A stretch of DNA of 63,539 nt, filler included, from Collodictyon triciliatum (Eukaryota), in NCBI GenBank assembly GCA_043381765.1. It is 6 parts of 6 records of this genome, joined end to end, with 100 filler letters (N's around TTAATTAATTAA, not from the genome) between each part and the next. Parts side by side here need not be neighbours in the genome. Positions count along the whole stretch, not along the records: positions 27,881 to 41,716 come from JBHJMP010001911.1; 5 more parts are not named here. One strand, written 5' to 3'. Below the pieces are notes generated by a model, which was not told where the DNA came from, did not search any database, and saw nothing but the letters and a program-made list of their open reading frames with translations. The position numbers were made by a program, and so were the translations under genes. Positions 4,303 through 63,457 of this stretch are shown here, one piece after another. The number at the start of each line of letters is the position of its first letter. Within the stretch, counting starts at the first letter, position 1.

Positions 4303-5653
4303 AGTGATATCTTCGAGAGGTTTCTCCCACCTTTGTTTGCAGGATATCGCGAGGATCTGGTTCGTAGAGCAGGAAAAGTATTGAATGTTAGAATCGTATG
4401 CTTGCAATATGGAAAAATCAACCACGAGGTATTTGTATGTATTTTCATTTTCCGGCCATCTCTTGACGTGCGTGTGGATATGAAACAGCAGGGCGTGGAA
4501 TAAATAACCAGACAAACCGGTCGACTCCGCCATCGGGCTCTGTCAGGCAACAAGGACTCGAACGAAAGCCTGCTTCAGAGGTGGCAGATAAACAAATGGT
4601 TGAATAGGTAGTTAGAGGAATACAAATGTCTGCTCTGTGTCCATTCTGTTCCGTAGTTAATTTCAGCATTCTCTCCGGCGCTCTTCAGGACACATAAATA
4701 ATGAATGGATTGTCCCCTTCATAGCTTCCTCTCGTAATCGACAAGAACTTGACACACCCATATTCTCTAATTCAGGTCCGGCATGACTGGCAGGATGCTT
4801 AGCGTGTCTCTCGCCTAGAAAATCAGGCTCGCTTCGACCCTCATTTATACATCTCGTGGTCGCTTCTTGCGAGGGAAAAAAAGAAAATATTAATGAGCCA
4901 AAATTAAAATAAAACAATCCATCGCACCAACCACACAGCCCACTTTGTCAATTCTTGTTTCTATTTTAATCGTGGTCTTCATTGTACAAATACGCCATTT
5001 GAAATGCATTACGAAGCTCACTTGATTTGCCAGTGCGTCATGGCCTCGCGTGGCTGTCATTGGGTCGCACGAATCCGCTGCTGTGGCCGAACACAAGCGA
5101 TTCCCAACCTGGATATACCCTTTCTTGGAAAATGAATCAGGCCGTTCTTTCTCAGAATTATGGGTTTAGACCTCCCAAAAATGTCCTTTTTGGGGAACAT
5201 GATGTCGACGCCGGGCGCACCAGGGTTCTGGTGCTGTGTCCAGATTTGGGCATCGGAGGGTGGAGTGAGGCTCTGAATCTCGCGCTTTCCGCAACACACG
5301 CGGCAGCGGACGCAGCTGGTGGGGATGTGTTTCGTCAACAGAACAACATAAAACTTAGGCAGATGGTGGAAACGAAGAGATGCTTACTAAAATTACGCTA
5401 TTTTCGATGGAAAAATCAAATATTGTGTGAATGAGACGAATGCGCCGGCGTGTAATGCTGCACACGTCTCGCTTCTTGTTATTCTCTTTTATTTTGTTGT
5501 GTGAGGCGAAACCAAAAAGAAAGGGAAAAAGAACCAGAATTCAAGGATATACAAGAGAACGTGGTGAGATATTGCCAAGGCTATCAACTGCATGACATAT
5601 CTTGTGTGAGTGCATCTCAAGCTTCATGTTTTGGTCAGCACATATTTGCATAA

Positions 5654-8600
5654 TCACCTCGGGAATCTGTCAACAAAATATGGAATGCTGTCGACAATCT
5701 TCTGGATGGGAAACGCGTCTGCTTGCTGGTTGGACCTTGTTGGAGAATGTGCGATTCTAACAGTTGAATTAGGCCGTGCTCTTTGATGGTTGGAGTGTGG
5801 GAAGGTTGTGTTCATCACGGATGATGCAGATGACACGCGGGTGGGTGAGAGTGGTTGTCCTGCTCTCACCAAGGAGCGACCACCAAAATGTGAAGCAGAA
5901 CTCTCATACTCCTGGAAAGGAGGGTCGTCATCCATGTCGATCTTTCTGGTCTCTACTTCCAGTCGAGCTCCTCTTTGTAATGTTGCAAATGAGCCAGAGT
6001 GTGAAGATGTCTGTGAAGTGAAAGGGAAATTCCACGATTGTTGATTCTCTACGCTCGATAAGCCGGCTGCCCGCTGGTTGAACCGGCTTGCTCCTGAATG
6101 TGTGCTGGAGTGTCCACTGAAAGGAACCCCTGAAGAAGCCCTGTCTCTTTCGAAACCACCCTGCGAGTAATCACCCAGTCTCTCATGAGGGAATTTGGAG
6201 GCAGAAGCAGGTCTCCGATTCGACGTTGTAGATGCAGCGGTATGACTCTGTCGACGAGAAAAAATATCAGTGTGTGTATCCATAGTGGACTCTGACATCG
6301 ATGCTAGTGTGGGTGCTGGTATGCCGGATGCTATCGCAGTTGACAAACCGAGGGTAGAACTTAAAGGCAACCTTGCCATATGTTGCAAGTAAGTGGGACT
6401 TGTGGCTCTTTGCTCAAATAGGATACGTTGCTCTCCTCGCATGTTCGTCTCAGATGCGGACGAATGCCACCGCTGTGCTTCTGTCCGAAGCTGGTGCTGC
6501 AAGGCCATGTTCTCTGTTTTCAGGGTATCCACTTCGGCTTGCAGTATCCTTGTCTTCTCCGTTGGTATACTTTGGGGCTGCAGGGTTTGTGCCAACGACT
6601 GGTTGATATCTGTTTGCATATGGCGAACGGAGTCGAGCAGTTCCTGGGTTTGCTTCAATTTGCTTGTCATAGAATCCTTCTCACATTGCTCTAAATCAAG
6701 AAGTTCTTTCATTCGCTGCTTCTCAAGCTCCAACTGGCGAATCTGTATTTCCAGTTGTTGTAGCCTCTTTTGTGAACTCTGTGCAGTGTCTATATTTTCA
6801 TGAATTTTTGATTCGTGTGCAGCCAACTTGTGCTCGAGTGTTTGCCTCTGTTTAGTTAGCATACTAATGACCCCTTTAGCGCTGTCGACTTCCTCTTGAA
6901 GGGATGCAATCTTAATAAGGGCCTCGTGACTCTGGATGTCAGCTGATTGCGACGCTGACTTTCCTGCTTCGACAGCCTGTTCAAGAGAATGCGAATTGTA
7001 CATGAGTTCTGATATATCAAAGCGTGGATAACTCATGCTGCCGATATGGGTTACATGCCTCCTAGAAAAATCTTGATATATAATGTGCAAAAGCTCGTCT
7101 ATATTTATTTGAAAAAGAATGAAAACAAAAAGGAAAAAAAAGAGTGTAAATATAAGTAACAACAGGGTGTTTGTATAAACTTCATAACAATTACATTTTG
7201 GAGTTGACATATGGTCCCTTTTTGTTCATCTGCATGTGTTTTCTAATGCACATTTTTTAAAAGAAAAATTAGCGCAGATAAACATAAAAGGCTTTGGGTG
7301 AGTATTTTGGCCAAATCAAGAGAAAAATCAGTGTGAGAAAACATAAATAATATTTTTATTTCATCCCTCTTACCAAAAGCTTATATTTCGAGGTAATCTC
7401 TTGCATAGATTCCATAATTTCTCGATTAGCTTCTCTAGCTTCCGATATTTGAGTGGAATATTGGTAAATTGTCTTTGATATTTCTTCCAAAAGATCGCTC
7501 AATGGGACATTTCGTAACTCTCGGTCTTGTTCGGCAGTGCCTGGCACTTCGTCAGATAGTAGATATGTCCTAATCTAGTAAGGTAAGAAAATAAATAGAT
7601 TGTGATTTTTGTTTGTAAACAAAATATCGTCTAAAAAAAAAAAAGGAAAAGAAACTATTCGCTGCATACGCTAAAGATGATGAAATTCATAATTGTTCAC
7701 CGTTTCCAACTCAACACTTCCATCCAACGAGGAAATGATTGATTCACGTATACGACAAAGCAGTTTGATATGGCTGATTTGTTCACTGTCACGTTCCAAT
7801 TGAATCCTCTTTGAATCAGACTCTAGTGCAGCTAACCTAGCAGCGAACTGCTCAGCATCACTTTTAAGCTTATCTGTAGATTTGTAGGTTGTATAATTCA
7901 ATAGTGAGACAGATAAAAATCCAAGAGTAATTTAACGCTGCCTATGTTTCAAAAAAAAAATTTTTAAAAAAAACCCCCCTTCAAAAAGAGTAAACATATT
8001 TTGAAGTTCGAACCTGTGTAACCATCGATCTGATGCTTATAATTTTCTATCACGGCTGTTTTTTCTTTCGCGAGGTTTTCCAATTTTTTTAACAGCACAG
8101 CTTTCTCGTCTGCTAACTGCACTACCTCGTCGCGCAGTTGTGTGATTTCGTGGCTGCACCAAAGAAATTTTAATTTCGATAATAATATGATGACTGTATT
8201 ACTTGACTTCGTAATTTCATGACATTATCAAAAATCCCACAAGAGGTAGCAAATATCATCACATTAAAGATAGGCATGATTAATCATTGGGGCCCACAGA
8301 CTGTAATTAATGGTAATGAAGCGAAAAAGGATGGTGTGAATTAAAAGGGGCTGTGAGGGTCTCAATCTTATTTTACCTCTTTATATCATTCGATGATAAA
8401 AGCCCATTAAGCTCGCTCCTTTCGGTGAGATAAGTCTCGCGTATCTCCTCAATAATAGATGTCCATTCATCCATTTGTGACCTCCCTCCATCATCTTTTC
8501 GATGAATAGAAAATTCAGACCTAATCTTTTATTTTTATGATGTAAATGTTATAATTAGAAATTCGGCAGTGGCTTGCTGTTGCATCTCGTGATAACTTCA

Positions 8601-11600
8601 GTGCTACATATTTTTCAGCTATGATTAGATCGCTACTTGTCGAATATTTTGGAGAATATCACGAGTATCCATAGCCATGAAGGCATCTAATATCTCCCAT
8701 AGTTCAGACAGCTATGGATTGCGTTTCAGAAAAAAATCAGTGATGGCAATTCCCACTGAAAAATTTAAATATTTTTTTTTTGTTGATTTTTGAATTTTGA
8801 ATTTTCTTATTTTATTGAAGTAACAAGCTTCGTAAGAATAATCATCGTGATGGTCTATGAATACATCGGTTTCTCTGACCTCTACTTCGAATGCGGAATT
8901 GTTGTCTCTGAGTTTCGCCATGAATGTCTGGAGTTCATCTGTGAAATATTTTTATTGTTACTGTTATTCGTTTATTCACACGCATTATAGAGAAAGAGGC
9001 GATTGTGATTCTGAAAAGATAATCTTGGTCATCACTCTAGAAGAACCTTTTTCGTGTTGTGTCCCTTCCAAAAATAATAACAGCTGCTTGTATTCAGTGA
9101 CAATCATTTCCATTTCCTTGCCCATCTCTACTATCTTTAAGCTGCTGCTGTGCTCCTTTGCAAGAGCCTCTTCATACTTTGTCCTCAGAGTGAAAAGAGC
9201 TTGTTCGTAAGATGCTGATTTTGTTCTCATAATCTCCCTAACGGCGAATCGTCATTAATGATTGAGTAAACAATCCATTACATATCAAGTTGATTCAATT
9301 TTATCATGAAATATTCTCATATAATAACATTATACTATCACAGTTATGGTCTGAAAGATATAAATGTGGTCGATAAACAATATTATTGAGATTACTTTAT
9401 GGCTTCCAGTTCTTTGGCATATTGCTCACATTGGCGGTGGGCTTGATTCAAAGCATCTCGCATGATTTCGGCTTTTTCATCAGCTGCAGGTGCTTCTTGT
9501 TCGACTACAGAAACCCAATGAATTGAAAATACTTTAGCAAAAATAGGCATCAGACGAAATAATAAGTGTATGTTATCAGGTTTCCAAGGAGAGTGAAGAC
9601 ATGCTTCGCCCTAGTATTTTCGGTGTACGGAATGAAATAGTAAGTGTATGAATATTTTATTGAAACCTTCCAACAAAGCCAATGATTTGTGCAATAGTCC
9701 AAGAACAATCTCCACATTAATTTTTTTCTCGGTGACATGAGATATCGCCGGGGGATATAGATTATCTTTTATGGATATAAGCAATCCATAGAGCTTGATG
9801 TAAAAAATAATACTTAATGAGTGTGCTTTGAAATAAATTCACTGGCACTACACGACCACTAAACCACTGGATTGAGCCTCCAAATTTTCTTTTCTCATTT
9901 GAAATATAGAAAATATAATCAGGGAGGAGTGTAGAATTATTGAGAAATTCAGTGTGGTAATATATAGAAAATAGCAAAGGTCGTCCTTTTCCGGGAAAAT
10001 ATTGGAAAAAAATAGCATGTTAAATGGGATACTTGGATAAGATTGAAGAAGAGATGTAGGCATATGTTACCTCTTTCGCAACGCCGGAGCTCAAGTGATT
10101 GGACTCTGACTTTACTTTTGCTAATATTCCAAGAAATGCAACTTCAGAGATTGAAGAAGCTCGAAATGCACATGGTTGAGAGGAAAAAGAAAACAAGTTT
10201 ATGTATGCGGCAAAAAGAGACAAGTGCTTACTTAGACTTCCAAATATGTTTGTCTCCAAGACACTTGACAGGTCATTCATCAAGGTACTCAGTCGTTTTG
10301 ATTGCGTGAGTTGCCCTTGATACTCCTCTAAAAACTGGTAGCAACATACTAATATGTCCATTATCGAATGACTTCCCCTTTCGGGCTGATTGGATGAAGG
10401 GAATAGTAAATCTTCTTTGTGAAGGTTGTCTTTCCCATGAATCAAATCAGTTTCAGAAGCTGCTGCATTTCCACGAGTTGCTTCAAATTCTGGAGCTCTC
10501 TTTATCTCAGAGTGTGTTGGTAACTTTGCAAGGGACCCTAGAGATTGGGAATCGAGTGGATCTAAAAGGCCAACGTGTCTAGGTGACGCTTGGTCATGAT
10601 TAATGTTCGGCTTGAAGTCAACATTAGCCACCAACGCTGGACGAGCAGACACATGGTCTTCATAAAATGTAATCATATCCTTCATAGTTTGCTCCATCTC
10701 CTGAAAAAAGACAGGCAAAGTAATATGGGCCTCAGACAGTTTCGAAAAGAACATTTTTATACTAGAAAATAGTAGGTTGGAGATCTCAATCAACTCTTGG
10801 GTGGGTTCTGGTATTATGTCTGTCTGTGTCGATGCACTCTCCAATAAAGCCATATGACCTGCTTGATGTTTGTTAAAGGCTATGAGATCTAAAATTTTCA
10901 TTGATTTGAAGGAGAATAAATAGGGACGATTTATTTGACCTGCCAATACTAAATCATGAATCAGTATAAATCAATCGACACTTTTTTAGAATAGTATTTA
11001 GAGGGAAAAGATTGTGAAAATTGCAAGTTCAGAAATATTTGACTTGTGTGGAAACCTGGAAGGTTTTCATATGGTATAGTATTTGTTTTTGAAGTGCTTT
11101 CTCCAATTTGCGCCAGTTTGGAAAACTACGTATCAAGGGAGATTGTCTTGAAATTATAAAAAAAAATTATCATGAATGTTGCTATCAATAAAAATCAAAG
11201 CGATCTATATTTGTCGTGCCTCATGACTATCATTCTTAACAACAGGTCTCCGAATTGGATCGGTATATTCTAGGCTGGAATAGAAGTATTATTCGAGAAG
11301 GGAAAAGAATATCTGTCGCAAGAGTTGATTTTTCTTTAAGTCACTGAGGTTTTTTTTTGAAAAACAAAAACAAAAACAAAAACAAAAACAAAAACAAAAA
11401 CAAAAACAAAAACAAAAACAAAAACAAAAACAAAAACAAAAACAAAAACAAAAACAAAAACAAACAAAATTACAGCTACCCATGGTGTGCCAAAGTTGAA
11501 CTACCAGATAAGGTCGAGTTGGTTCTCTATGCGAGTTTGGTGAAGTTTGAAATTGAATAATTCAAGCTCTCTACAATTAAGATTGTATGTAAATGCAAAA

Positions 11601-13680
11601 AATCAAGTTCAATTTGAGATGAATTATATACCTCAACCAATCCCTCTTTTTGTATTTGTTGGAAAATAATAGATATTTTTGAAGATTTAAACATCAGTGT
11701 CTGCAAAAGCTCAATCACATCTGTTATGACCTCAAACGTTTGCGAGAATTCAACCTACATTAATCAATTTTAGCTGTGTTAAATTGGGGAAATAGCTCCT
11801 AACCTGTTGAAAAAAAAATTATAATCGAGAATATGCACCACTTGTTCATTCATTATATGCATATTTAAATATTCATAATACCATCCATCATGAAGTATAT
11901 TTTCTTAAAAGTAATCATACACTGCGTGGAGATTCTATCGATTGGTTCTTTTTTAGATATTCCTTCAGGAAATGAATCTGGTTCCCAACAGATTCTTCGA
12001 TAAATTGAAAGAAAGATGAAGTAAAATGAGAAGCTTCGGGAGATCCCAAAGAGCGAGTCGCTCGGATAAATGAACCGCTATAAAAGGATGTTGTTTTTTT
12101 TAAAAAAAAAATGATGCCAAAATTACACGAGAACATAATAAATGAGCCCAGTGACGAAGGAAACGCCCAGAAATAAAACCATTCTATTGAAGAGTATGAA
12201 AAAAATCTTACGAGTAGTTTACATCCGTAGTTGTCCTTGACTCAAGCAATCTTGTGTAATCCTTTTGCACCTCACAGTAGCGCCATTCTAAATCAGATTG
12301 GTCTCGAATAGATCTATCCAAGACAGCCTTGAGGCGCTCGTTCTCCTTCACCAGATATTGTGCCCCGTGGTCGGCAGTTTCTTTGATAGTGCCCGACACT
12401 AGAACCATATCCTGGGCGAAAAATTGTTCGGGAATGATGAAATACGTATCCGCTTGCCATCCATTAAGGAATTAATATTTGGACACCATTTGGTGTTACT
12501 TTTTTATTTTGTTTGCCATTCTTTGTCATTTTCCTTATTCTTTCAGATAAATAAGCAGAATTCTTTGTAGGAGAAGAAAAAGGAATAGCTACTACTTACA
12601 TTTGACTCTTCTTTAAGCACATCATATTCTATGCGGAGTCTCTCGTGCTCCCTCTTCAAATTAGAATACTCACACTGTAACTTTTCCAGTTCGCTGTGTA
12701 AAGTATCCTCCGGGCTCAACAAGAGGAGAAGCTGATTTTTCTTGTGATTCAAAGCATCAATTTCCTTGACTAGGTCTTCCTTCTCTGATAAGAGCGACAC
12801 TCTCTCCTTGATGAGATGTTTTGTTTCTTCACTCATTTTACTTAAAAGATATGTTTCATCAGCCTCCCCCATGAAAATATGAGAATTAGTCCCTGAAAGT
12901 CCAGACATATTGTCCCGCCTTGCGTCGGCAAATCTAGAATATCTGCTGGATTCAATTCCTTTTTCAAACAGAAAATCATCGTCTTCACTATTTTCCTCCA
13001 ACGTCAATCTTTCTGCTGTCCGAAGACCGGATTTTTGAAGGTCAGGAAATAGGATAGAACTGTACGTGGAAGTAATTGCTGGGTTTTCTGCGTAGGCCTG
13101 ACATTGAGTACAATGAGTTTAAGTCAAAATGCGTGAAGTTCATAATATTAAGGTTGGAAAATGCATTTGCGCAATTCGTAAGTAGAAAAAATTCGATTAT
13201 TGTTTTTTGCTTCTCTATCGTTCCTTACTTTTTGGGGAAAAAAAGGAAAACCTAGCGATGCAAATAAAAAAAACTAGAAGAATAAGAATGTGCAGTTATA
13301 TTTTTTATCTGGATATCAGCCGTACGCATACATGCATTTGGTATTCCGGTAGTCGAGTCGCTGCAGCTTCATAATTTCTGTCCTGGCTGTTTTCATCTGG
13401 CTCGAATCCCAACAACTGATCTAGCGTCAAGGCATCGCGATGATTCTGCTAATATATGCTTATGTAAATATAAATGTGTAACTTCTGCGCTTTGGCGGTA
13501 ACAACGTCTGGATATCAGAAAAATGCAATAGTATGCTTTGACAAGCAAGAAGGAACAAAAGAGCAGAATCGTATAGGGTTTACAGACAGATTAAAAATGA
13601 CAGTATTTTTTCTAAAAAAAAAAGACAAAAACTGAACAATGTGAAGCACGTACACCCGAGACGCGAGTATCTGGTTCCAT
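5654..13680 (-). CDS. Large multi-exon coiled-coil protein of unknown function with an S/R-rich disordered C-terminal part
   Basis: A series of E/K/L/Q-rich minus-strand ORF pieces (13007-12543, 12408-12208, 10946-10020, 9230-8985, 7901-7671, 7547-7356, 7210-5654) is separated by AT-rich GT-AG introns. No catalytic motif was recognised. Both ends are uncertain and this could be two genes. Confidence 0.65.
11360..11465. repeat. (AAAAAC)n microsatellite in an intron
   Basis: Direct reading. Confidence 0.95.
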
Positions 13681-13840
13681 GGCGCTGTGCTTTCTCGATG
13701 GCAAGCTGATTTTTTTAAAAAAAAATATATGTTTTAGTGGTTTTTTATGGTTTTTTTATGGTTTTTTATGGTTTTTTATGGTTTTTTTATGGTTTTTTTA
13801 TGGTTTTTTATGGTTTTTTATGGTTTTTTTTATGGTTTTT

Positions 13841-13940
13841 NNNNNNNNNNNNNNNNNNNNNNNNNNNNNNNNNNNNNNNNNNNNTTAATTAATTAANNNN
13901 NNNNNNNNNNNNNNNNNNNNNNNNNNNNNNNNNNNNNNNN
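13841..13940. other. Artificial contig spacer (44 N + TTAATTAATTAA + 44 N)
   Basis: Identical 100-bp linker with stops in all six frames; it recurs five times in the window. Confidence 0.97.
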
Positions 13941-14256
13941 TCGTGCAATACAGCTTCCTGAACAGTCTGCTGAAACACGCTCGCATTCTTCGCTACTCTG
14001 ACCGCAAGCGAAGAGAGATGTGGGAATGTGTCGTAAGATATCTTCCGCAGCATATCCAACCCCTGCTACCCACGCAGCCAATCAACCAGTTGGGTCGCAC
14101 ACCTGACCAACTCGCTATCACTAATATCTTTCCAGAGTTAGCCTCTCCACCGTAGTGTCTTCTCTTACACGCGCTTGCTCTCTCCCATGCGCTCCCATCC
14201 CGCCCCTTTGTATGGCATAACCTCGCTGTACTTCGAACCGAGTAAAGGGAAAAAAA
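13941..14256 (+). mobile_element. 3' end of an L1/Tx1-like non-LTR retrotransposon (family A): ORF2 C-terminus, 3' UTR and short poly(A)
   Basis: The ORF ending at 14155 (QYSFLNSLLKHARILRYSDRKRREMWE..QLAITNIFP) aligns with the post-zinc-knuckle C-terminus of the element at 26587-27780 (QISFPNSSLRHLHVLYYSDPVRRDMWK..QFLITDYFS). The tail ends GTAAAGGGAAAAAAA. Confidence 0.75.
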
Positions 14257-23737: not shown

Positions 23738-26460
23738 ATGTCAGGTACCGAGACGCAGTGTCCAACACCTTTCTCTGCAGGTTGTGTCTGCGACATGTTT
23801 TATTGTCAGATTTAATCTCAATAGCATTTTTTTTTTTTTATAAAACCCACAGCAACAAGCCGTCTTGCTCGTGGCAAATATGCAGACATTCTCACCACGG
23901 ACTTTGAGAAGCGGGAGAACATCCTGGGCAGGGGCGGCTTCGGGCTGGTCTTCAAGGCGCAACTGAGAGCTGGCCTCTTTGCCGTGAAGAAGATCAGCGA
24001 CCCGTCTCTCACCGCTACCGACGATTCAGACCCCGAGAAGGAGGGCAACATTATGCTCGATCTGCAACACCCGAACATTTTAAGACTCTACGACTTCGGC
24101 TACCGCGGCAAAGACATGCTCCTTGTCATGGAGTTTGCAGATGGCGGGGAGTTGTGCTCACTCATCAAGAAGCAAGGGGCACTCGGAACCGATCCGACTC
24201 TCAAGTACGGGCAGCACATCATCCGCGGCCTCGTCTACCTGCACACGCTGCCAAGGCCCATACAGCACCGCGACATCAAGACCGAGAACGTCTTGCTTGT
24301 GAACGGCATCGCCAAGCTGACCGATTTTGGCTTATCAAAGAGCGGCGTCTCGGTCAACTCGGTAAGCAAGTTCCAAGGCGCAATTAAATGGTCGCCTCCC
24401 GAGGCCTTCGAGATAGGCCATAGCATGGGGCTGCCCAGCGACGTCTACTCGTACGGCGTGGTCCTCTGGTCCATGGTGAGCGGCGAGTATCCGTACGAGG
24501 GTATGACAAATAACCAGATCGGAGCCATAGTCTTGAGCGGTAAATTACTTCCTCTCCCAGCAATATGCCCTCCTAACCTTGCTGCTATAATCCACAAGTG
24601 CTGGGAGAGGAATTATAAGACTCGCATCACTTCTCAACAAGTGGAGGCCGAGCTCAAGGGCATCATCAGCAACCCCGTTGCTGTCCCAGTTGCCAGGGCT
24701 AATCCAGTCGAGCTCATGAGTAATGCAGAGCTCGTACATTATTTACAGAGCAAGAATGTCAACCCAAGGTTTATCGATGCCGTACGAGAGGTAGGGTTGG
24801 TTGGAGAGGAATTTGTCCAGCTGACCGAGGAAGACTTGATCTCTAGCCCCTTCGATTTACCCAGAATTCAAGTGAAAATCATCCTAGGGCTTCAACGATA
24901 TAGCCGGCATGGAGGTATCCGTCTACTCTATGAACCTTATGGATTTGCAAGACAAGTTATCCTTTTACTATCTTTAATATTCCCTTTTGTTTCTTTTTTC
25001 TCTAAACAGAACATGAAGAGGTTGCTACAGGAAAAACAGTTGTCAGTCAGGACCCTATAGCAAGACTTAACCTTTCAAGTCCTCCAAATGTCAGTACTAA
25101 ACTCCTCGGCAGAGGTAGCCAAGGGATGGTCTTTGAGGGCACCTACGCGGGAAAACCAGTTGCCGTCAAGAAAGTTGTAATGTCCAAAAAGAAGGAGGCC
25201 ACTCAGGAAGTTCTACTGACCACAAAAGTCGCTCATAAGAACATCATCAACATAACTGGGGTCTATACAAGTGCAGACAATTTCTTTTGCATTGTCATGC
25301 CCCTAGCAACAGATTCCCTGAAAGGTTACATCGAGAAAAACATAAGAATCGACGTCAAACAAGCATTCAGCTTTGCCCAGCAGATATGCGACGCCTTATT
25401 GTTCTGCATTACAGCTGTTCCGAAAGAGCCGCTCCACCACTGCGACCTCAAGACAGAAAACATATTGATTGTGGACGGAGTTGCCAAGGTGGCTGACTTT
25501 GGGATGGCGATAACACGTATTAAGACCGGTATGTCCTCGCTACCCGGACGCACGAAGGTTGTGCCAGAAGACCAAGACGTTGGAGGGACCATACATTGGC
25601 AAGGACCGGAGAACTTTGATGAGGTATGCAAAAGCGAGTACAAAATGCTGGAAGGAACTGATAACATCGGATTCCGAGGTGAACGCAGCGATGTGTATGC
25701 GTATGGTCTGATTGTTTGGTCTATGGTGATGTGCCAGTATCCATTTTCTGCTTACACACCAAAAGAGATTTCACCTAAAGTTATAAAAGGCCAAAGACCC
25801 GAGATGTCTGTGGATGTTCCTTACGCCTTTCGACAGCTAATACGAGCATGCTGGGGCCAAAACTACAAGTACAGACCCACTTTTTCCAAGATTATGAAAT
25901 ATCTGAATCACTTGAGCTTGGAGCCCCAAGCAAGCGTAAGCGTCATCGAAAGTCTCTTACCGCTCACATATTCACCAATAAAGGATATGTATCATGGAGA
26001 ACTGTATGAGTACTTGACAGACAGAGGGGTTTCTAAAGAAGAGGCTTGGAAGTTGACGGATAGTCGGGTGAATGGAGACCATTTTCTGAGCAAGAGCGCT
26101 GAATCGTTAATGAAGGATTATAAAATAGCCAGACATACGGCAGATTTTATTATTTCACTTCGAGGAGGTGAGTCCCAAAGCAAACCTCCGCCGATTGATA
26201 GAAAGAGCACAATCCCTTCCAGGGACTCAGTCACAATAGGTTCATCACGTATTTGTGACATGAACACCACAAATCTTATTGCTCACATGAGAAAACTAAA
26301 AGTAATGGAAAGTTTTGTCAGAGCACTGGAAGAACACGACATTAATGGGGAGGACTTTTTAAAACTTACACTTGAGGAACTGACTAGTTTTCCTTATTCT
26401 CTTGAAGAGAGGCAGGCCAGGCCAATTTTAAGGCTTATTGAAAAGTCTTCTTCGGCATGA
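23738..26460 (+). CDS. Tandem TKL-type protein kinase with SAM domains (kinase-SAM-kinase-SAM-SAM), 3 exons
   Basis: Exons 23738-23780, 23853-24914 and 25010-26460 splice in frame. Kinase 1 has LGRGGFG, AVKK, HRDIKTEN and DFG. Kinase 2 has LGRGSQG, VAVKK, HCDLKTEN and DFG. SAM-like segments are VGEEFVQLTEEDL, VNGDHFL and INGEDFLKLTLEEL. Confidence 0.9.
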
Positions 26461-26586: not shown

Positions 26587-27780
26587 GTTTTTTATTCTTC
26601 CTTTCTATTTTGTGCATGATTTTGAGTTTCTGGCTTTGGTTCGCTGGCCATCGTTTGCATGGACGCTACTTGGTGGTCGGGTGGAGAGAAGTAGTCGGTA
26701 ATCAGGAATTGCATCCTGCGGTTTGGCCTGTAGCCTGGGTCTTGTGCTTGCATGAGAGATACAAGGCGAGGTTTTATATCCTTCTCAGCCTCTTTCCACA
26801 TGTCTCTTCTCACAGGGTCGGAGTAGTAGAGAACGTGCAGGTGGCGAAGAGAGCTGTTGGGGAAAGAGATTTGTATGATGTCATCCAGCCTGTTATCAGG
26901 AATGGGTGGCTGGTTGTTGAGTCTTGCTTTGCGTGAATAAATGCGTGCTATCCACAAAGTCCATAGCAAATGGCCTCGCGTCACTGCCCAGAATGTTTTT
27001 GCATCTGGACGCAGCTGTTGCAGAGGGCCAAATATCGCCTGTATTGGGACAACAGCCGCAGCTGTCTTGAGTGTCAGTCGAAGAATCTCACCGGTTGTTT
27101 TGTGCAGGTTTTGAGCGAAGGGACACGGCATAAACGTGTGCTCAATGGATTCATCACTGTTGCTGCAAAGTGTGCATTGTTGGGAGACTTTGCCAGCTTT
27201 TGCCGCGCGTGTGCCTATCCATAGCTACCTATTGGTGATATTAAGCATTAGAGAGCGGTGATTTGGAAGGACTTGCGGGGTTCGTGCTTGTCTCCAGCCC
27301 GCGGTGAGCGGGGTGTGGGCGATGCCTAGTGTTTCTCCCCATCGTTGATGTTTTGACTTTTTTTAGGGTGTTGGCGGCGATATTTTGTATCGAAATAATT
27401 TAGAGTAGGCCATAGCCATCGAGAACTGAGTAGACTGCGCACCGTTAGACGAGCGTTCGTTCTTGAGGCGGAAAAAAAATGGCGACGGGATGTCGTATGA
27501 GATTGGTCTGCGTGAGCGCCATTTTCCTTTGTTATTCAGGACGGCTGTGGTTGGCTGTGCATCTTGTGTGCGGAATGCGGTGGAACCTGGGATTGTGATG
27601 TATGAGCCGTCTTCTTTGAATGAGATTTCTCTGATGGTGGCCGCGTTGCCTTCGTGAACCTGTTTGATGATGCAGAAGCCTTTCTGGTTGTCCCAGCATA
27701 TTTGTCCTGCTGCCAATGGCTCGTTCAGGGGTATTGTCATTTCGCAGTGAGTATACAGAATCTGCCAACGCGAGAGCAAA
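26587..27780 (-). mobile_element. 3' part of an L1/Tx1-like LINE ORF2 (family B) with zf-RVT-type CCHC knuckle, two in-frame stops and a poly(A) end; cut by the contig end
   Basis: A single frame reads ..QCTLCSNSDESIEHTFMPCPFA..LLWTLWIARI.., with internal TAA near 27363 and TAG near 27225. The terminus is GAAAGGAAGAATAAAAAA. Confidence 0.85.
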
Positions 27781-27880
27781 NNNNNNNNNNNNNNNNNNNN
27801 NNNNNNNNNNNNNNNNNNNNNNNNTTAATTAATTAANNNNNNNNNNNNNNNNNNNNNNNNNNNNNNNNNNNNNNNNNNNN
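27781..27880. other. Artificial contig spacer
   Basis: 44 N + TTAATTAATTAA + 44 N. Confidence 0.97.
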
Positions 27881-28105: not shown

Positions 28106-31100
28106 AATCAGGCGTGGACCCAATGACAGCCTCCCAGAGTAGAACTTTTGAGGCCTTCAAAAAGATTATTGACTCACAATCTCATGTTAAACTTGTTCAG
28201 TTGACTCTCTCACATTTCTTGTTATCCTTGACCAAGGAGCATGCTCCATATGACGTGATAGTTATGGACACGAGATTTTCTTATATCCCAGAAAAGGTTT
28301 CCCCTCCTTTATTTGATTATTCGATTTTTTTCAAACCGATTTTTTTTAGAGGCATATACGATATGGTAAGAATAATCACGAATTATGTGATATATTTGAT
28401 ATTTAAAATACAATAGATTTCTTCATATTCTGCAGAATTGGAGATACCTGTAGTATTGGATTCGACAGGATACCATATCCTGCGGAACAGATCTGAGGCC
28501 ATTCGAATCCTACGAGCTTTTGATGTTTGATTTGATCCCCTTTTTTTTTTTTTATCAAAATAAAAAAGACATCTTGGACTGTTTTAATATAATAATGATG
28601 GTATCTTTGTGAAAAATCTATGCTTTTTTTCTCCTCTCATTAAATCCAAAATTTATAATTTACTAGGTACCTATGCTATCCCAACTCATGATTGAACGAA
28701 AAGAAGGCTTAGAGGAGCCTATCTTACAAGAATATGATGACCATCTCGAGGTTTTCTTTGTCGTGACAATCAATTCTACATAATATTTGAAGTCTAATAT
28801 ATCTAAATAATGGCGATAAGTAAATGTGCTTGACCTTTTTTTTTTTTTAGTTTTTAGTTTTTAGTTTTTAGTTTTTAATTAGGATAGCCCATTTTATTTT
28901 ATCTAAGGTCGCAGCTGGTACTTTTATAAGACCTTTCATTGAAAAACTGCTTAGCTTTGATGATTCTGAAAGCGATACATGGCGCATCTATTTCCCATCT
29001 AGCATAGGTGGAGGGGATATGGAAAGCGATAAAAACGTAAAAATATCCAAAAAAATACTTTTTATCATTTAAGTTTGCCACAAGCTAAATGTCAACTGGA
29101 TTCTAATCTTTATGGTTTTTATATAAAGTAAATGTGAGACCGACCATGTATTATTCTATGTAGGAACCGACCAAAAGTAAAGGATTTCAAAACAGGGTTC
29201 GAAGAGAGACATCTTACATATATCAAGAGTTACCTCCTTGTAGCACCTATATAATAGTTCGTATTAATCACCACTTTTCTCAATATAATTTCACTAATGC
29301 CATTCTTACTAAATAAATATGCATACAATAAGAAAAAAAAGTAGCAGTAATATAAATTTAAGTTTGGCGCTCCGTGCACCTTAGGTGGATATATTGGAGC
29401 CTGCTTTTTACACTGCATATGAGTATCCAATATTGGCGGACCGAAACAGTCTAGATATACCACCCAGATATGATATCAAGAAAAAAGTATGTCTAACCAG
29501 CAAAGAAGTCGCCCTGATTTCTCAGGTTTATTTTATTTTATTTTATTTTTACTTTTTCTTTGTTCTTTTATGAAAACGAAATCTAGTCTCATGTATTTAA
29601 TGGAAACGTAGCTTGAGGTTAGAGTGATACTAATTAGCCGTTGTTAGATTTACCCCTACATTCAAACCCCGTTTGAGATGCATATTTGTCGAACCATGGA
29701 TGTCTCATATGTTACAGATTTGGTTGAGAGCAGAAGTGATTCGGCAGCCAGCAAACTTTCCCATAAACTTATGAAAGTCGCATATAATATTTTATATGAT
29801 CTATATGAAATCTCCAATTTAAATTTATCATTTCCCAAATCAGACCAAGAAAAGCGTATAATTCCATAGAAAGCAATTTTATATTATTAATGTTTCCTTC
29901 TTTCTTTCCCCATCTATTATTCAGGAAATTGGAGACATCATACCCATAAGGAGAACTGAAAAAAAGAGTGGCGGATCGGTCAGTTATTTGTATCAAACTT
30001 TAAGTACTTCTTCAGGTGGCACAAGTTTGTCCGTCAAGGGGGCCTCTATACCCTCGAATAAGAAAAAAGGGCGAATTATAGTGATGAGACATGGCAATCG
30101 AACTCCGAAGAGGAAAGTCAAGTTTAGCACCACAGACAGCCTTTTCATAGATTACTACGCCCTTGTACAACCGAACTTTGGGGAGGAATATAGGACCACC
30201 GAATGGTCAAACCTGATTTCGCTTTACAATTTCCTTTGCGATGTTATCAAAATCGCAGAAAATCTAGATTCAGCACCCGAGGGACACTCTCCTGATTATC
30301 CCGTCGAAAGTGTGCATGTTGTTTGTCGCGTACTGTCCCACGCCCTTCAACAAAAATCTCCCTGGATGGGGGAAACTCTCCGCACTTTAAAGTTTCAGCT
30401 TCGTCCTGATATAATGAATGATAGTGCGGATATGTATGGCCCAGATGTTGAGCAAATTACATTCATCTTCAAATGGGGTGGCGATCTGTCCCATATTGGT
30501 TGCAAACAATCACAATACCTCGGGTCATCGTTCAGAGCGGGACATGAAGAAGGTAGGGATTTTAAAGTAGTTGTCTTATGAAAAATTCGCTTACTTTTTT
30601 TTTTTTTGTGTGTTCAATTATGGCATAAATCTACTAAGAATCGTTAAGAATGTGATATGATTGCCAGATTTTTATAATCCAAAAAAAAAAAGTTTTAGAA
30701 TCATGATAATATTATATAATGTAATTGTGCTTCATGTTTTGAATTGAGTGGAGGAAAAAATATTATGCTTTATATATAAACATTTAACGAAAATATATAC
30801 TGCATAATTCCCACCATTTAGTCCGAAATGCGCAATTTATCACCGCATCAGAGCCTAGAATAAAATTGAGCGCTGCGGCTTTCGCAAAAGGTTTCTCGGA
30901 GCCCTATATGACTATACCACATATAGTTATGTTTAAGGTATGAAAGTAACCATCTTTGGTATTACTTAGTACAACTCTCTTAGATATTTACAACAAACGT
31001 TGCACTATAAGTTTATTCCATATTTTTTTATTTTCTCAATTTATTTATATTTACGAAAAATTGTAGATTCAATCCGACCAAGCTAGTGACGGGCTTTTAG

Positions 31101-32936: not shown

Positions 32937-35900
32937 TCACTGCGGAGAGTCGCTTTGAGCTAATTCAGGTGGTTGGTTAGATGATGATTGAGGAACGACT
33001 GCTGCTGCACTCAAGGAGGCAGGCACCAAGCTTGGACTCTGTGTCTGGTTTGATTCATAGCATGGGTCACAGACACGAGAAAGAGCCCCGGTCACGTAAA
33101 GCTTCTTTGTTGAACAAGCCCCACAAACTACGTCTCCACATTTTCTGCAATGATGCTGCAGGATAGGGTTTCGGTTAATTAGTATTCCTTGGTCCATAGT
33201 TTGAATCGGATAAAGGAGGGAGGTATTTCCTGTCTGTGTTATCAAGAACGCAAGAGATGATGGGTTTTGGCGAGTGAATAGATAGAGTATGAGAAGAAGA
33301 AAAAGAAAAACATACACGTCTGTTGGTCAGAGTAAACTTCACGTCGCAAACTGAACACGAAGTCGTCGTTGAATCCTGTTTCCACACAGGGGCATGTGTT
33401 GTATCTTCATCTCCTTTTAGAAGGAAAGGCAAATGGATATTCTGCGTGTGTTTATATCGTAACACAAATCATCAAATGAAGCTAATCTCAACGAACCCTT
33501 TTTTGAGCCAAGGCTTTTCTTGAATTCCCTCAAAGTGTCATCTATTGATAACATCCACGCGTCCTTCTCCTCTTGAGTGTCTGTTTTTACCACAAATGAT
33601 TTTTTCAAGCTACGAACAGTAAATCCATAGTACTCTAGAAAAATTCAAATCATTAACAAACTATATAAAAATTATCAAATAAGTGTGTGGAACATCATAG
33701 CGGGAAACTGCAGATAATCAGAGCTACTGAATTCGATGCAATAAAATGCTTGAACGGAATCAACTATCACCCTGGCTGCTGTCATTTGCTATAGATAAGT
33801 CGTTCATGCTAATTTGCTGTGATAATTTCACGCTTCCATCGGCAGCTCTTTGCCCATAAATCATGAGGTCGTTGAATAAATAAAACATTCTCCGTTTGTC
33901 TTCTTTTCGACAAACTTTAATAAGATTCCCTTCCTTGACGAATCTACGATGAGAATCCACTAACTATAGGTGACAATAAATAATAGATTAGCTCATTAAC
34001 CATACGTATCAAATTAAGTGGTTTGATAAACCTGAATTTCTCCGTTGAGTTTTTGTTGAATTTGTAAAATCTTATTTCGGCTTTCTTGCTCCTTAATAGC
34101 CTCGTTGATTTTGGAAGCGACGACTCTCACTTGTTCAAGGGCCTTCACAAATAAGTGCACATAAAATTATGATATCACCGATATAATATATACAAAGGAG
34201 GCATACTTGGCAAAGTCCGTTATAGTCGGCATGACCGTCATTTGTGTGTTTGACAATATCCTAATAGAAATGACCAATATCAGTGAGGTTTGTTCAAAAA
34301 AAAAAACATTGGATTAGCAAGAGGAAGAAAAAAAAAAGAAGGAAAATAGAAAAACATACTCCTAGTAGCAATGTGTATCGGGGAATTCTTTGAACTGGCA
34401 TAATCAAAAATGACCGAATGTCAAGACCGTTACCGCCTTCTTTTTGCTTCATTTCCTGTTCGCGATTAATAGTATTCATAAGTGATATATAATCAATTAA
34501 AATGTAATATAAACTGTGCGAAAAGTGCGACTCCATAGAAATTACAGAAAAAAATGAAGAATAAGTAGCTTTCAAAATATTTTATGGTCTGAATTATACT
34601 GGAAGCAAGGAGATATGTGGCCATACCATTATAAATTGTAGGAAGCGCGGATTTTGCTTTTCTAATTCTTGAATCTTCTTCACAGCATCATCAAAACCGA
34701 CGCAATATTGGGTATACATTTTCAGGAAGGGGATCTAATAGAGAGATAAAGTGTTTGGCCCAAGAAGGAGGAATAGAAGAAAAGATATTGTTTTTAATTT
34801 TTCAACCGTGTTGATAGCTCAACTCTAGCACTTTTAATCGAATATAGAAGGGAAATTTGAAAGGAAGAATGATATTAAAAAAAAAAAAAAGAAAGGAAAA
34901 ACATGTTCAGGGTTCATGAGTTAACATTTTAAAAAGGTAGTTATCATCTACGTTTCTTTTGATTATGAGAAAGAAAGAAAAAAAAAGAGTCACCAGTGAT
35001 TGCATAGCATCGGCAAGAGTGGCCTCACTGGACCAGTTTTTAATCTTGTCGTACAGTTTCTTCAAAAGTTCTTCATTCACCTTCAAGATATGCGTAATGG
35101 AAGAGAAAATGACAAAAATGTCCTTTGATCCAATTATTTCATCCAAAGGCTTGATATATTCCTATTTCATGTCCATTTTTTTTTTAATTAGCTAGGAAAT
35201 ATTGTGGAGGGGTTTCGGCGATTTCAAATTAAAAAAAAATACCAATAGAGTAAAATATGAATGTTTGGCGTTGCCATCTTTTACAACAGGTTGAAGAGGT
35301 GCACATTGGCTTCTACCTTCTCCAAAAATCGCAAGCTTCTGACGTAGGACTGCTCTGTGGTGAATAGCTCTCTGGCTACTTTGTCTCTGTGTTGAGGAAA
35401 GTTTTCTGACACTGGCGCATATTCGAGCATCGATTCGATTGACACAGGGCTCTGAATGTCAGATACTGGTTTCTAAAATATCACAAATAAATCATTAAAA
35501 GGGAGGTTACTTTTTCTTTTCCTATGTAATATTTGGTTTGTAAGTCAAGCGGTATTTTTTGTTTCTTCTTTTTGACCCGCGAATGAATACAATTAAATTA
35601 TATGGAGCGTATATTCAACGTTGCATACTGAGACAAATTAAAAATGTGAAAGTAGAGACCATCACAGCGCATACTTATCATACAATCGAAAAATACACCG
35701 AGAAAAAAGAAAAAGAAGCAAGATATCGCTTCATTCATAAGCATTTCCATTTTATTGCTCTTTTCTTCTTTTCTGGGACACACATTAGCATAAAACTTAC
35801 AAATTCTGAGGAACGTGACGATATGGAGCTGAACGAACTGCTGCGCGACAAGACAGTTCCCTCCGAGGCAAATCTCAAGACTGCAGGCTTCAAAGCATCC

Positions 35901-36647
35901 TTCAGCTGCTGAATCTTCTCACCTGACGGCTTTGGCGGCACCACAGGAACAGACTTTGGCGATGGGCGCGCATCTGACTGAACCCCCGTAGTGGCTGCAA
36001 CAAAGCGGGACGCGATTTCCTCTGCGGTCTGCTCTGCTTCGCCCTCCGGGTTGGTCACCTCCACAATCAGTTGGGTTGGCTCTACTGAGACGCGCGCCAA
36101 AGAGTTTGACCGGATGCGAAGCAGTGTGGATTGCAGTTCCGTGTTGCTCACTGCAAAAGTCCCAGTTTGCCGCGGAGTCGAGGGCGATTCAGTCTGAGTC
36201 GGCAATGTCGGGGCCGCAGCCTCGGAAGCAGGCGGTGGCTTCACAGAAAGCATCTTCGAGCCGGCCCGATGGATGCGTGGAGGAGGTGGAGGCGGCTGCG
36301 GTTTGGGTGAGCTGTATAATGTGTGAATTTTTTTGTTTTTATTTTTCTCCTTTTTATTTTTATTTTCATGTTTATTTTGTTTATTTTTTCCTCAAAGAAA
36401 TAATGTGATAGAAAATATATTAATATAATATAAAATAAGACAAGAGGACACGAGAAAAGAAGTAATTAATGTAAAATGAAAGGAACAAAAAAAAAAAAGA
36501 CAAAAAAAAGACAACACAAGAGAATATAAACTCCTCGTTTTCTCTGCCGTTTGGAAAGTCAAGACAATCCAATAGTAGCTCATAATTAACATTAGCATAT
36601 GTAAGGTGAGGGGCTACATACACAGGAACCGCATCTTGTGTTTCCAT
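32937..36647 (-). CDS. FGD-like RhoGEF (DH)-PH-FYVE protein, multi-exon
   Basis: The DH domain has IPFLKMYTQYC and SFLIMPVQRIPRYTLLL. The PH domain has RRFVKEGNL..RMFYLFNDLMIY. The FYVE domain has WKQD..CSVC..RR|HHCRKCG..VC..RVCDPC. The N-terminus is Pro-rich and splices in frame from METQDAVPV. Confidence 0.9.
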
Positions 36648-37298
36648 GACGAAGTTAGGGTGAGGCTGCGCTGGCTGGAACCGAGTTTTAACTGGGCCTG
36701 AAAGGTAAACAGGAAGAAGAGAATCAATCTTTGCACTAAACCAAACATATGATCAAGAAAAAAGAAGAGGAAATAAATAAAAATAAATAAATAAAAAAAG
36801 GAATATAAGGAATGTCCTATGCGTATTCGGCACTCATGCTGGTGGTTGATGTTCTCCAAGAGCAACTGCTTGTTTATCAGCGCCGATCGGCCAGAGTCCT
36901 GTCCGTATTGACGTTTGAAGCGGTTTGCAAATCCAAAGACCCGAATCCAGACAACTAAAAAACACAAATAAAGTAATGATGCCATATTTATATTCCAGCT
37001 TTAACATCCTAACATGGAAACTATATCTGCGCTTTGAACGCAGCACATTATCGCATTCTGCCATTGAATCGAATAAAAATAAAAAATAAATAGCATTCTA
37101 CTCATTCGCTGTGTGGTGTTGGCAGCTTTCTTGGTTGTGTTGATTGTAAGATTATTTGATTATTATTTTTTTACAACGATAATGCTATGGAGGGGATGTT
37201 CAATCCAACAGAAGACTGGTTAGCTAGAGTCCATCTTGGTCGAATGTATTGTCTTTTATTTTTCTGTAATGGGCTCCGGTTGGGTGGGTGTGTTTTAC

Positions 37299-39254
37299 TC
37301 AAAAGAATTCATCAGCATCGTCGTACGCATCGTGGACATAATCGTCCTTTTCGACCAGTGCAGTTGGCTTCTTGGCCGGGGCTAAATGTTCATTTCTCTT
37401 AGACTTTGGTATCCTTTATGCGTAGGGATAATAACATGCTCAGCTAATACTTGAATGTGTAGTAACCATTAGTTACCTTTCGTTGGTTTGCCCTTCGATG
37501 CTTTCTCCTTCTTTTGGATTTCGTTGAAGACGGCCGAGACCACAGTATTGATTTCACTGACCTCCAGAGATTTCAGTTGGGCGGTCGACAAGCGAATCAG
37601 CTGTTTGAGGAAAGGCAGATAATTGGGGTCTTTCTGCGACGGGTAATTTGATATTTTGTTAAGATTTGATGCGTCTCTCACTTTTAATCGAATAAAGGGG
37701 GAAAAAATTGTTGCATCTCTAATATGTCTTATTTGTCAAAAAAAAAAAAAGTTGTCAAATATAGTACTAGTGTGGAAACGGAACTAAGGAACTAGAAGAG
37801 ATTTAGAACTTGTATGTAATATGTATGTTCTTTTTTTTTTTAAAAAAAAAATCGTTCGTGCTGATGGAATTTGAGTTTACCTCAAAAGTCTTGAATTTGT
37901 TGGATAACATGTCAGCATATGCATTAAAGTCTGCCGCAGTTTTTGGTTTGTAAGAGTCTAACGTCACCGCGCCACTGGCCTCTTTTGTGTGATTGATGGT
38001 TGGTGAGTATGTTGATTATTTGGCAATATATATAATTCAAGGAAGTAAAGGGATTATATACACGTAATGTTGGCAGTTTCTCAAATATGATATTCAAGTC
38101 AACGCATGAATTCGCCCATACGCTGTCCATGATAATCATATGTTGTTTGGTTCTATTTCATAAAGGGGAAAAAAACTCAAAATCACTCCCACCTGAACGC
38201 ACCCCAGAGAATAAGTCGACTGCATTTTCATAATCCGCACCCTCTACTTGTCTACACAGGATTTTTCAAAGACAGATAAAAAAAATAAATGTGACATTTG
38301 AAAGTGATTATTTCCCTCTTTTTGTCGACTACATAAACTTTGACTGGCGGTGGTAAATTGCAACCGCACTAACCTTTTCTCGCGCTCACGAACAGTCATC
38401 ATGTCCTCCAAATCGTCCATTTTGCTTCGTACAGGCTCGTTTGTTTTCGCCGCAGCTTTTCCTAGACGGAATACATACTTATGTAACAGTTATCTGGTGT
38501 ATTCCCCAAACAAGATTTTTATCATGAGCTGAATCCCGTTGTCTCGATTAATCACATGTCATTTTAACATCTCATATCATAATCCAGTGTATGCATATGT
38601 AGAATTGTAATTTTCACCACTTTAGTGGGTCAGTGCGAATCATATTGGAATGAATAATATAGAATGAAAGAGATAGAAACCTTTTGCAGCAGTAGCAGGG
38701 GCTGCTTTTGCCGGGGCTGCTTTAACAGGAGCTGCTTTGACAGGAGCTGCTTTGGGTGGTTCTGCTTGCTTCACTTCGGGTTCTTCCGCATCCCAAGAGT
38801 CCGGAATGTCATCTGCTTTTTCGTCGTCCCAGTTGTCAGGTGCACTAACGTCAACTTTTGCGTCTTCCTCTGCAAGAAATGAATTCTTTGTTATTTCTAC
38901 AGTTATTTGTCAGTTTTATGGCATAACCTCGCTACACTTTGAATCGAATAAAGGAAAAAAAAATTTGTCAGTTTTATAGAGTCACTGCGACCTTCTACCA
39001 GGAAGTTAGTTTCGGGGTTAAGAGTATCAATAGAATACAGGTAGAGTATTTTAAAGATCAAGTCACTCCAATACATACAACACGTTTCGTCATATGTCTA
39101 CTCCAAGAAAAGGAGAAGAAAAGGAGAAGATAAGAAGGACTAGAAAAATGGAAAAATGGAAAAATGGAAAAATAGACAAATAGAAATAATAGAACCGATT
39201 GTTAGACATTTAGACAAAATCAAGGTTTCTGTGTGCTTTACCCCAGTCAGCCAT
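37299..39254 (-). CDS. EIF3J: Translation initiation factor 3 subunit J, multi-exon
   Basis: MADW start, acidic DNWDD/DSWD N-terminus, YLPFLKQLIR..EIQKKEKASKGK and C-terminal DDYVHDAYDDADEFF*. Confidence 0.8.
37679..37707 (+). mobile_element. 29-bp family A LINE-tail insertion with degenerate TSD, in an eIF3j intron
   Basis: CACTTTTAATCGAATAAAGGGGGAAAAAA flanked by TTGATGCGTCTCT (37666-37678) and TTGTTGCATCTCT (37708-37720). Confidence 0.7.
38920..38962 (+). mobile_element. 43-bp family A LINE-tail insertion with a perfect 15-bp TSD, in eIF3j intron 1
   Basis: GGCATAACCTCGCTACACTTTGAATCGAATAAAGGAAAAAAAA matches the LINE end at 14214-14256. ATTTGTCAGTTTTAT lies on both sides (38905-38919 and 38963-38977). 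Confidence 0.9.
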
Positions 39255-41716: not shown

Positions 41717-41816
41717 NNNNNNNNNNNNNNNNNNNNNNNNNNNNNNNNNNNNNNNNNNNNTTAATTAATTAANNNNNNNNNNNNNNNNNNNNNNNNNNNN
41801 NNNNNNNNNNNNNNNN
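41717..41816. other. Artificial contig spacer, followed by a long poly(A)/(AAAAC)n run
   Basis: 44 N + TTAATTAATTAA + 44 N. Confidence 0.97.
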
Positions 41817-55647: not shown

Positions 55648-55747
55648 NNNNNNNNNNNNNNNNNNNNNNNNNNNNNNNNNNNNNNNNNNNNTTAATTAAT
55701 TAANNNNNNNNNNNNNNNNNNNNNNNNNNNNNNNNNNNNNNNNNNNN
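55648..55747. other. Artificial contig spacer
   Basis: 44 N + TTAATTAATTAA + 44 N. Confidence 0.97.
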
Positions 55748-61542: not shown

Positions 61543-61642
61543 NNNNNNNNNNNNNNNNNNNNNNNNNNNNNNNNNNNNNNNNNNNNTTAATTAATTAANN
61601 NNNNNNNNNNNNNNNNNNNNNNNNNNNNNNNNNNNNNNNNNN
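61543..61642. other. Artificial contig spacer
   Basis: 44 N + TTAATTAATTAA + 44 N. Confidence 0.97.
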
Positions 61643-63328: not shown

Positions 63329-63379
63329 TCTAAAGTATCATGCATGCTCATATAAAGACTCAATCAAATCTCATTTCAA

Positions 63380-63408
63380 ACTTTGAATCGAATAAAGGGG
63401 AAAAAAAA
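63380..63408 (+). mobile_element. About 29-bp family A LINE-tail insertion in an ABCC intron
   Basis: ACTTTGAATCGAATAAAGGGGAAAAAAAA flanked by TCATTTCAA (63371-63379 and 63413-63421). Confidence 0.75.
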
Positions 63409-63457
63409 TAATTCATTTCAACATTATGATTAAAACGAAAACTGGGTTCAAGCAAAG

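Follow-up and report, generated by a model that had tools for sequence, protein, structure and literature searches.

The closest described systems are two retrotransposons, Ylli (the L1-family LINE of Yarrowia lipolytica) and human L1. For Ylli, 17 of 19 tail-bearing repeats are reportedly no longer than 134 bp, a count that is attributed to Casaregola et al. 2002. The truncation lengths of human L1 copies are broad, about 1 kb on average, and tiny copies constitute a minority. In the available sections of its description, Ylli is represented by 17 full-length copies, 7 fragments of more than 1 kb and 104 fragments of 30 bp to 1 kb, and these sections state that no target-site duplications (TSDs) were identified (PMC5014426). 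According to the available part of a study on human L1, an insertion that is severely truncated can consist of nothing but poly(A) and go undetected (PMC3812793).

In this work we focused on six very short inserts in a window of 63.5 kb, the whole stretch of Collodictyon triciliatum DNA that was analysed. It is very probable that they are extremely 5'-truncated tails of one poly(A)-tailed, L1-like LINE family, integrated by target-primed reverse transcription (TPRT). The first-pass annotation had already proposed an L1-type TPRT of 5'-truncated LINE tails, and this proposal is supported by matches confined to the 3' end of the element, by A-rich tails and by TSDs of 9-15 bp. By description, and as far as the available sections on Ylli go, the inserts resemble Ylli in belonging to a poly(A)-tailed LINE, probably of the APE type, in which very short 3' ends, truncated at the 5' side, make up the overwhelming majority of copies. 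They differ from Ylli, within the same sections, by their clear TSDs of 9-15 bp, by being shorter still (mostly 17-35 nt) and by their intron-rich host. The likeness to human L1, again by description, lies in the truncated 5' ends, the TSDs, the poly(A) tail and the probable TPRT at a putatively T-rich nick; in contrast to L1, all six copies inside the contigs measure at most 45 nt, and none is of intermediate length. The mechanism is a known one, and extreme truncation has already been documented for both Ylli and human L1. The present inserts stand out by how far they are truncated, by the clarity of their TSDs, by lying strictly antisense and by clustering locally. On present evidence, they are a small, clean instance of biology that is already known.

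Inserts of 20-45 nt lie below the working size of repeat annotation, so that many LINE scars could go uncounted. Should the bias towards tiny copies extend to the whole genome, it would provide a natural system for finding out what ends reverse transcription early, as well as a gauge of the filter that the introns of a compact genome impose on the length and orientation of inserts. The share of A-rich microsatellite seeding that is due to LINE activity would then also become addressable.

The window is made up of six contigs joined end to end, with five filler linkers of the form N44-TTAATTAATTAA-N44 between the parts:

1-13840: contig A
13941-27780: contig B
27881-41716: contig C
41817-55647: contig D
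55748-61542: contig E
61643-63539: contig F

Its G+C content is approximately 40% (40.3%), and its genes are intron-bearing and eukaryotic. Two LINE 3' ends lie at the opposite ends of contig B, and the first of them, a remnant, can be divided into its parts:

13941-14256, + strand: LINE 3' end, at the start of contig B
13943-14152, + strand: C-terminus of ORF2 of the LINE remnant
14153-14155, + strand: stop codon of the LINE remnant
14156-14249, + strand: 94-nt 3' UTR of the LINE remnant, ending in AAAGGG
14250-14256, + strand: A7 tail of the LINE remnant
26592-27780, - strand: 3' part of a second, related LINE, with a zf-RVT match

The same element as at 13941-14256 is carried by a metagenome contig of 1157 bp (L003), with 92.4% identity over 316 bp. 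The terminus of L003 consists of GGCATAACCTCGCTACACTTTGAATCGAATAAAGG followed by A10, and 35 nt of it are the same as positions 38920-38954 of the window, within the longest of the short inserts. The short copies are closer to this family terminus than is the decayed remnant at 14211-14256. Whether the recurring motif is the conserved terminus of full-length LINE copies had been set as a test of the original proposal, and the same terminus was found in both LINE 3' ends available, i.e. the window remnant and L003. This metagenome contig was one of 14 loci obtained by scanning metagenome contigs with a 19-nt tail pattern, and it is the only LINE among them; the other 13 loci are unrelated, being devoid of poly(A) or LINE context, and several of them lie in one conserved gene. 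A scan of genome contigs gave seven matches, all of them in Bacteroidota MAGs and none relevant, and a scan of viral contigs gave no match.

The parent element is seen only over its last 330 codons or so, corresponding to the C-terminal zf-RVT region. The ORF of L003 is frameshifted, and the zf-RVT region was recognised in a near-identical database fragment (P0003). An exhaustive HMMER search retrieved only 14 relatives, four of which are full-length proteins of 1226-1275 aa (P0011-P0014); a word-index search for longer relatives of the LINE ORF scored none. All four full-length relatives contain the Exo_endo_phos and RVT_1 domains, and three of the four also contain zf-RVT, with identities of 25-31%. 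The alignment of the L003 ORF with P0011 covers residues 975-1123 of the latter (E = 3e-17). From these relatives, at 25-31% identity, we infer that the parent LINE probably encodes an AP-endonuclease and a reverse transcriptase in an L1-like architecture. The LINE at 26592-27780 matches the L003 ORF in a tblastn search with 55.6% identity over 180 aa (E = 1e-66) and shows 69% identity at the nucleotide level; it belongs to the same superfamily, and to a different, older family. Its zf-RVT-bearing ORF (P0001) is matched by the ORF at 13941-14256 with 54% identity over 28 aa (E = 4e-08).

The motif TTTKAATCGRATAAAGG, searched in the window at up to two mismatches, gave five matches, all on the + strand, at positions 33200, 34832, 37682, 38938 and 63382. 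In shuffled sequences a mean of 0.16 matches was expected, and none of 100 shuffles reached five. A sixth copy, at 37065, was retrieved with the 15-mer TGAATCGAATAAAGG at two mismatches, and the recurrence of the motif noted earlier is thereby confirmed. At up to three mismatches the 15-mer gave 13 matches versus 3.5 expected, and the LINE remnant itself was recovered at three mismatches. The copies, their flanking repeats and two further candidates are as follows:

38920-38962, + strand: longest of the short copies, with 35 nt of LINE tail followed by poly(A), same as the L003 tail
38905-38919, + strand: left TSD of the 38920 copy, ATTTGTCAGTTTTAT
38963-38977, + strand: right TSD of the 38920 copy, ATTTGTCAGTTTTAT
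63371-63421, + strand: 63380 copy with its repeats; insert 63380-63412, a 19-nt tail, GG and an A-rich run
63371-63379 and 63413-63421: repeats of the 63380 copy, TCATTTCAA
37666-37720, + strand: 37679 copy with its repeats; insert 37679-37707, a 20-nt tail with one G-to-T change, GGG and A6
37666-37678 and 37708-37720: repeats of the 37679 copy, TTGATGCGTCTCT and TTGTTGCATCTCT, respectively
37050-37101, + strand: 37062 copy with its repeats; insert 37062-37089, a tail of about 16-18 nt and a degenerate A-rich run
37050-37061 and 37090-37101: repeats of the 37062 copy, ATCGCATTCTGC and ATAGCATTCTAC, respectively
33182-33234, + strand: 33195 copy, old, with its repeats; insert 33195-33222, a 17-nt tail with one mismatch
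33182-33194 and 33223-33234: eroded repeats of the 33195 copy, GTATTCCTTGGTC and GTATTTCCTGTC, respectively
34829-34890, + strand: 34829 copy, the oldest; a 20-nt tail with three mismatches, possibly about 41 nt with indels
38160-38175, + strand: candidate minimal copy, ATAAAGG, GG and A7, possibly a 7-nt copy; no TSD seen
28296-28320, - strand: weak candidate reverse copy, ATAATCAAATAAAGG followed by AGGGGAAA

The longest copy is 98% identical to L003 over 50 nt, the microhomology at the junction being counted in, and the 19-nt tail of the 63380 copy is identical to L003 at all 19 positions. Alignment of 38917-38962 with 14211-14256 gave 86.96% identity, i.e. the 40 of 46 positions that had been claimed for the longest copy and the last 46 nt of the LINE remnant. 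The insert placed near 33200 had been given coordinates that were one base off, and it corresponds to 33195-33222. A-rich 3' tails are present in five of the six copies, in the form of A9, A8 followed by TAA, A6, an A-rich 15-mer, and A14 after degenerate sequence; the 33195 copy shows the purine run GGAGGGAG where poly(A) would be expected. In the 34829 copy, which is without a recognisable TSD, the tail is followed by a degenerate A/G-rich stretch and then by the A run. ATAAAGG occurs 16 times in the window; four of these sites are followed by a run of zero to three G and then at least six A, and three of the four are known copies. A weak reverse copy had also been reported near 28300. A site does exist there, with the motif at 28306-28320 on the - strand, and it remains a candidate only, because its three mismatches and its local score of 11 (95th percentile of the null, 12) are within the range of chance.

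To describe the part of the element from which the inserts derive, the 1.05-kb LINE part of L003 was used as a query against the window. Every short match fell within the last 18-50 nt of the element: the six matches lie at query positions 1006-1068 of 1157, with the end of the LINE at 1055 and poly(A) thereafter. This query produced no short match to internal LINE sequence in the window and no copy of 50-300 bp inside any of the six contigs, all six copies being 45 nt or shorter. Relative to the poly(A), the 5' ends are located at about -35, -20, -20 (possibly -41 with indels), -19, -17 and -17. The search needs approximately 15 matching nt, and the accumulation of copies at 17-20 nt is partly due to this detection limit. 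The 34829 and 37679 copies have a G-to-T variant in common and both start at -20, a pattern that could equally come from a discrete short template. Speaking against truncation as the origin of the inserts are the 34829 copy, which has no TSD, and the 33195 copy, which has a marginal TSD and no A run. RNA structure in the tail was considered as a stop for the reverse transcriptase and rejected: the tail folded no better than shuffled sequences (z = 0.79, -0.38 and -0.71), and a structural stop is therefore unsupported.

The TSDs were evaluated using arms of 12 nt with a slack of 2 nt at each boundary, the boundaries of the inserts having been fixed by eye ahead of the test, and 30000 random sites outside tandem repeats served as background. 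The 38920 copy scored 12/12 (P = 0.00007), and the perfect 15-bp duplication claimed for it was found again at 38905-38919 and 38963-38977. Eroded or shorter TSDs had been assigned to four other copies. Three of these assignments stood at P < 0.02, namely 37679 (10/12, P = 0.0017), 37062 (10/12, P = 0.0019) and 63380 (9/12, P = 0.012), and the fourth, 33195, was marginal (8/12, P = 0.067). The 34829 copy scored 5/12, i.e. none (P = 0.87). TSDs at P < 0.02 are thus present in four of the six copies, with a Fisher combined P of 3e-8 on the masked background and with boundaries set by eye; on an unmasked background, in which microsatellites are included, the individual P values are weaker (0.01-0.10). 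The TSDs are 9-15 bp long and abut the inserts. A broad, unanchored TSD search across the window was too weak for detection, because microsatellites inflate the background. De novo searching of the window for A-tailed inserts with 11-mer repeats returned the 38905 case only, and displaced controls gave 0-2. Pure poly(A) tracts with flanking repeats of at least 9/10 were found three times versus 0.64 expected, two of them in simple repeats. One tract, at 37738-37750 and with a flanking repeat of 9/10, resembles what a zero-length copy is expected to look like, a hint that comes with weak statistics.

The junctions were read by eye from the sequence. In three of the five TSD-bearing copies TT lies directly ahead of a repeat that starts with A, which would agree with a nick of the L1 type at TT|AAAA; the 63380 copy does not fit such a TT|A site, and the 37679 copy is ambiguous. 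In the 38920 copy, the sequences compared at the 5' junction are TTTTAT (target) and TTGTAT (LINE), with exact microhomology over 3 nt and agreement at 5/6 positions overall, as expected if the end of the cDNA annealed to the target. The 38920 and 63380 copies combine perfect repeats with a tail identical to L003, and the other four carry mismatches in both tail and repeats. With two intact and four eroded copies, the insertions therefore occurred at different times.

All six copies are on the + strand and the recognisable host genes on the minus strand, the copies being situated in introns or in the flanks of genes. Under random orientation, six of six antisense copies would be obtained with a probability of 1/64 (0.016). 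Two copies lie in a minus-strand FYVE/PH/RhoGEF gene (about 32.9-35.5 kb), the 33195 copy inside the intron that splits its FYVE domain and the 34829 copy between RhoGEF exons. An eIF3j-like gene, also on the minus strand (37.47-38.9 kb), has the 37679 copy in an intron, the 38920 copy upstream of its first recognisable exon and the 37062 copy downstream. The 63380 copy lies in a minus-strand, ABCC-like gene of contig F, and one exon of this gene was identified by a PDB sequence search; Pfam searches with single pieces of ABCC-like exons found nothing. Since the LINE tail contains AATAAA, a copy in sense orientation could cause transcripts to be polyadenylated prematurely. It is therefore plausible that orientation, and by extension length, is under selection, and the finding that copies in genes are strictly antisense speaks for at least some contribution of selection.

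Five of the six copies are located within 5724 bp of contig C (P = 0.0017 under uniform placement), in a region that is slightly more AT-rich than the window (38.5% versus 40.3% G+C). Such a cluster of five copies in 5.7 kb is not predicted by simple random insertion. The density of about one copy per 10 kb consists of this cluster and one further copy across six contigs, and it is a figure for the window, not one to be extended genome-wide.

The inserts might instead represent a separate, tiny, non-autonomous element, consisting of an RNA of about 20 nt plus poly(A) with the LINE tail in common, and mobilised in trans like a SINE or a tailless retropseudogene. A discrete template of this kind would account for the G-to-T change and -20 start common to 34829 and 37679, for the three other copies that start within 3 nt, and for the lack of any 50-300 bp copy inside the contigs. 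We nevertheless consider it improbable: the 5' ends are not uniform but range from -35 to -17, with a possible -7, and the need for about 15 nt for detection piles the copies up just above this limit in any case. Furthermore, the -35 copy continues directly into LINE sequence, and inserts of 17-35 nt are too small for an internal promoter or the head of a small RNA. Neither a tRNA gene, by tRNA scan, nor an Rfam family was found in the window. A tiny SINE-like RNA, listed by the first-pass annotation among the possible sources, is accordingly disfavoured, as the 5' ends differ and no tRNA or Rfam RNA is present.

Very short inserts and microhomology at junctions are also typical of filler DNA, and one copy is without a TSD, so that an endonuclease-independent capture of LINE cDNA or RNA fragments during double-strand-break repair has to be weighed as well. 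Direct repeats of 9-15 bp abut the insert in four of the six copies, however, and the exact 3' end with its A-rich tail is kept by all copies, as poly(A)-primed synthesis predicts; together with the TT|A site in three of five, this makes repair filler highly improbable. It is more improbable still, to the point of being nearly negligible, that the motif has no connection with retrotransposition and either serves the host as a cis-element, for example in polyadenylation or in regulation from within introns, or recurs by chance. Such a signal would suit the AATAAA inside the motif and the location in non-coding parts of genes, but the motif lies in antisense orientation relative to the host genes, which places AATAAA off the transcribed strand. 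Moreover, the enrichment was matched by none of the 100 shuffles, the motif is identical to the LINE terminus over 19-35 nt, and TSDs are present.

In the sequence of events that we favour, target-primed reverse transcription of a LINE tail, the endonuclease of the element would nick a T-rich site, and the freed 3' end would prime on the poly(A) of the LINE RNA. Copying would be limited to the last 17-35 nt of the tail, perhaps to as few as 7, after which the cDNA would be joined to the upstream end of the target, using microhomology in at least one case. Staggered cleavage of the second strand would then generate the TSD of 9-15 bp. That only short copies occur inside the contigs would most likely be due to two causes in combination, reverse transcription that aborts early and purifying selection on inserts, the genome being gene-dense and its introns short. 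The survivors of this selection would be tiny copies in antisense orientation only, given the AATAAA in the tail.

A more far-reaching and rather doubtful possibility is that abortive TPRT is the usual outcome of LINE activity in this genome. Most events would then copy 7-45 nt of the tail, or poly(A) alone, and would leave thousands of inserts below the size handled by repeat maskers, in local hot spots and kept only in antisense orientation in introns and gene flanks. If this were true, short copies would outnumber longer ones and would record LINE endonuclease activity at single-site resolution.

Elsewhere in the window, an ORF of 862 aa was without any match in the sequence search. The window also contains one kinase, the best match of which is transcriptome-derived and shows 42% identity.

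Five of the short LINE-tail copies, that is, 5'-truncated LINE 3' ends mostly followed by an A-rich tail, lie within 5724 bp (33195-38962), all of them on the plus strand, a concentration that has a probability of 0.0017 under uniform placement. The AT content of this region is just slightly above that of the remainder of the window. The window itself is assembled from six contigs, four of which are each 13831-13840 bp long, resembling a size-sorted list, and spacing and density figures are meaningless where the span crosses one of the linkers between them. These are identical in 5 of 5 cases (N44 + TTAATTAATTAA + N44):

13841-13940, linker
27781-27880, linker
41717-41816, linker
55648-55747, linker
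61543-61642, linker

The number of G residues between AAAGG and the poly(A) differs among the LINE-tail copies, ranging from 2 to 5. Distinct source elements or slippage at initiation could be the cause of this variation.

38953-38954, 2 G, copy at 38920
112-113 of L003 (a metagenome contig carrying the same LINE), 2 G
14247-14249, 3 G, LINE remnant at the start of contig B
63397-63400, 4 G, copy at 63380
37697-37701, 5 G, copy at 37679

Still shorter insertions were considered as candidates:

38160-38175, plus strand, ATAAAGGGGAAAAAAA, within an intron of the eIF3j-like gene
37738-37750, A13 tract with near-identical 8-10 nt repeats on both sides (9/10)
30681-30691, A11 tract with near-identical 8-10 nt repeats on both sides (8/10)

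The first is possibly a copy of 7 nt from the LINE tail; no target-site duplication was seen. The two A tracts could represent poly(A)-only insertions; repeat-flanked A tracts show just a weak surplus over the permutation control. The 19-nt tail pattern is also present, coincidentally, in L002, L005, L007 and L015-L021, where a conserved gene in Bacteroidota MAGs contains it; these occurrences have no relation to the LINE.

Contig B terminates within LINE sequence at both ends, a second remnant being located at the far end from the first:

26592-27780, minus strand, second LINE remnant, matching zf-RVT, the C-terminal zinc-knuckle domain of the LINE

This remnant, in which no poly(A) was recognisable, shares 55.6% protein identity and 69% DNA identity with the L003 element. 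The same contig carries two adjacent ORFs, whose top outside match is just 42% identical:

23825-26460, plus strand, two tandem protein-kinase ORFs of 411 aa and 484 aa
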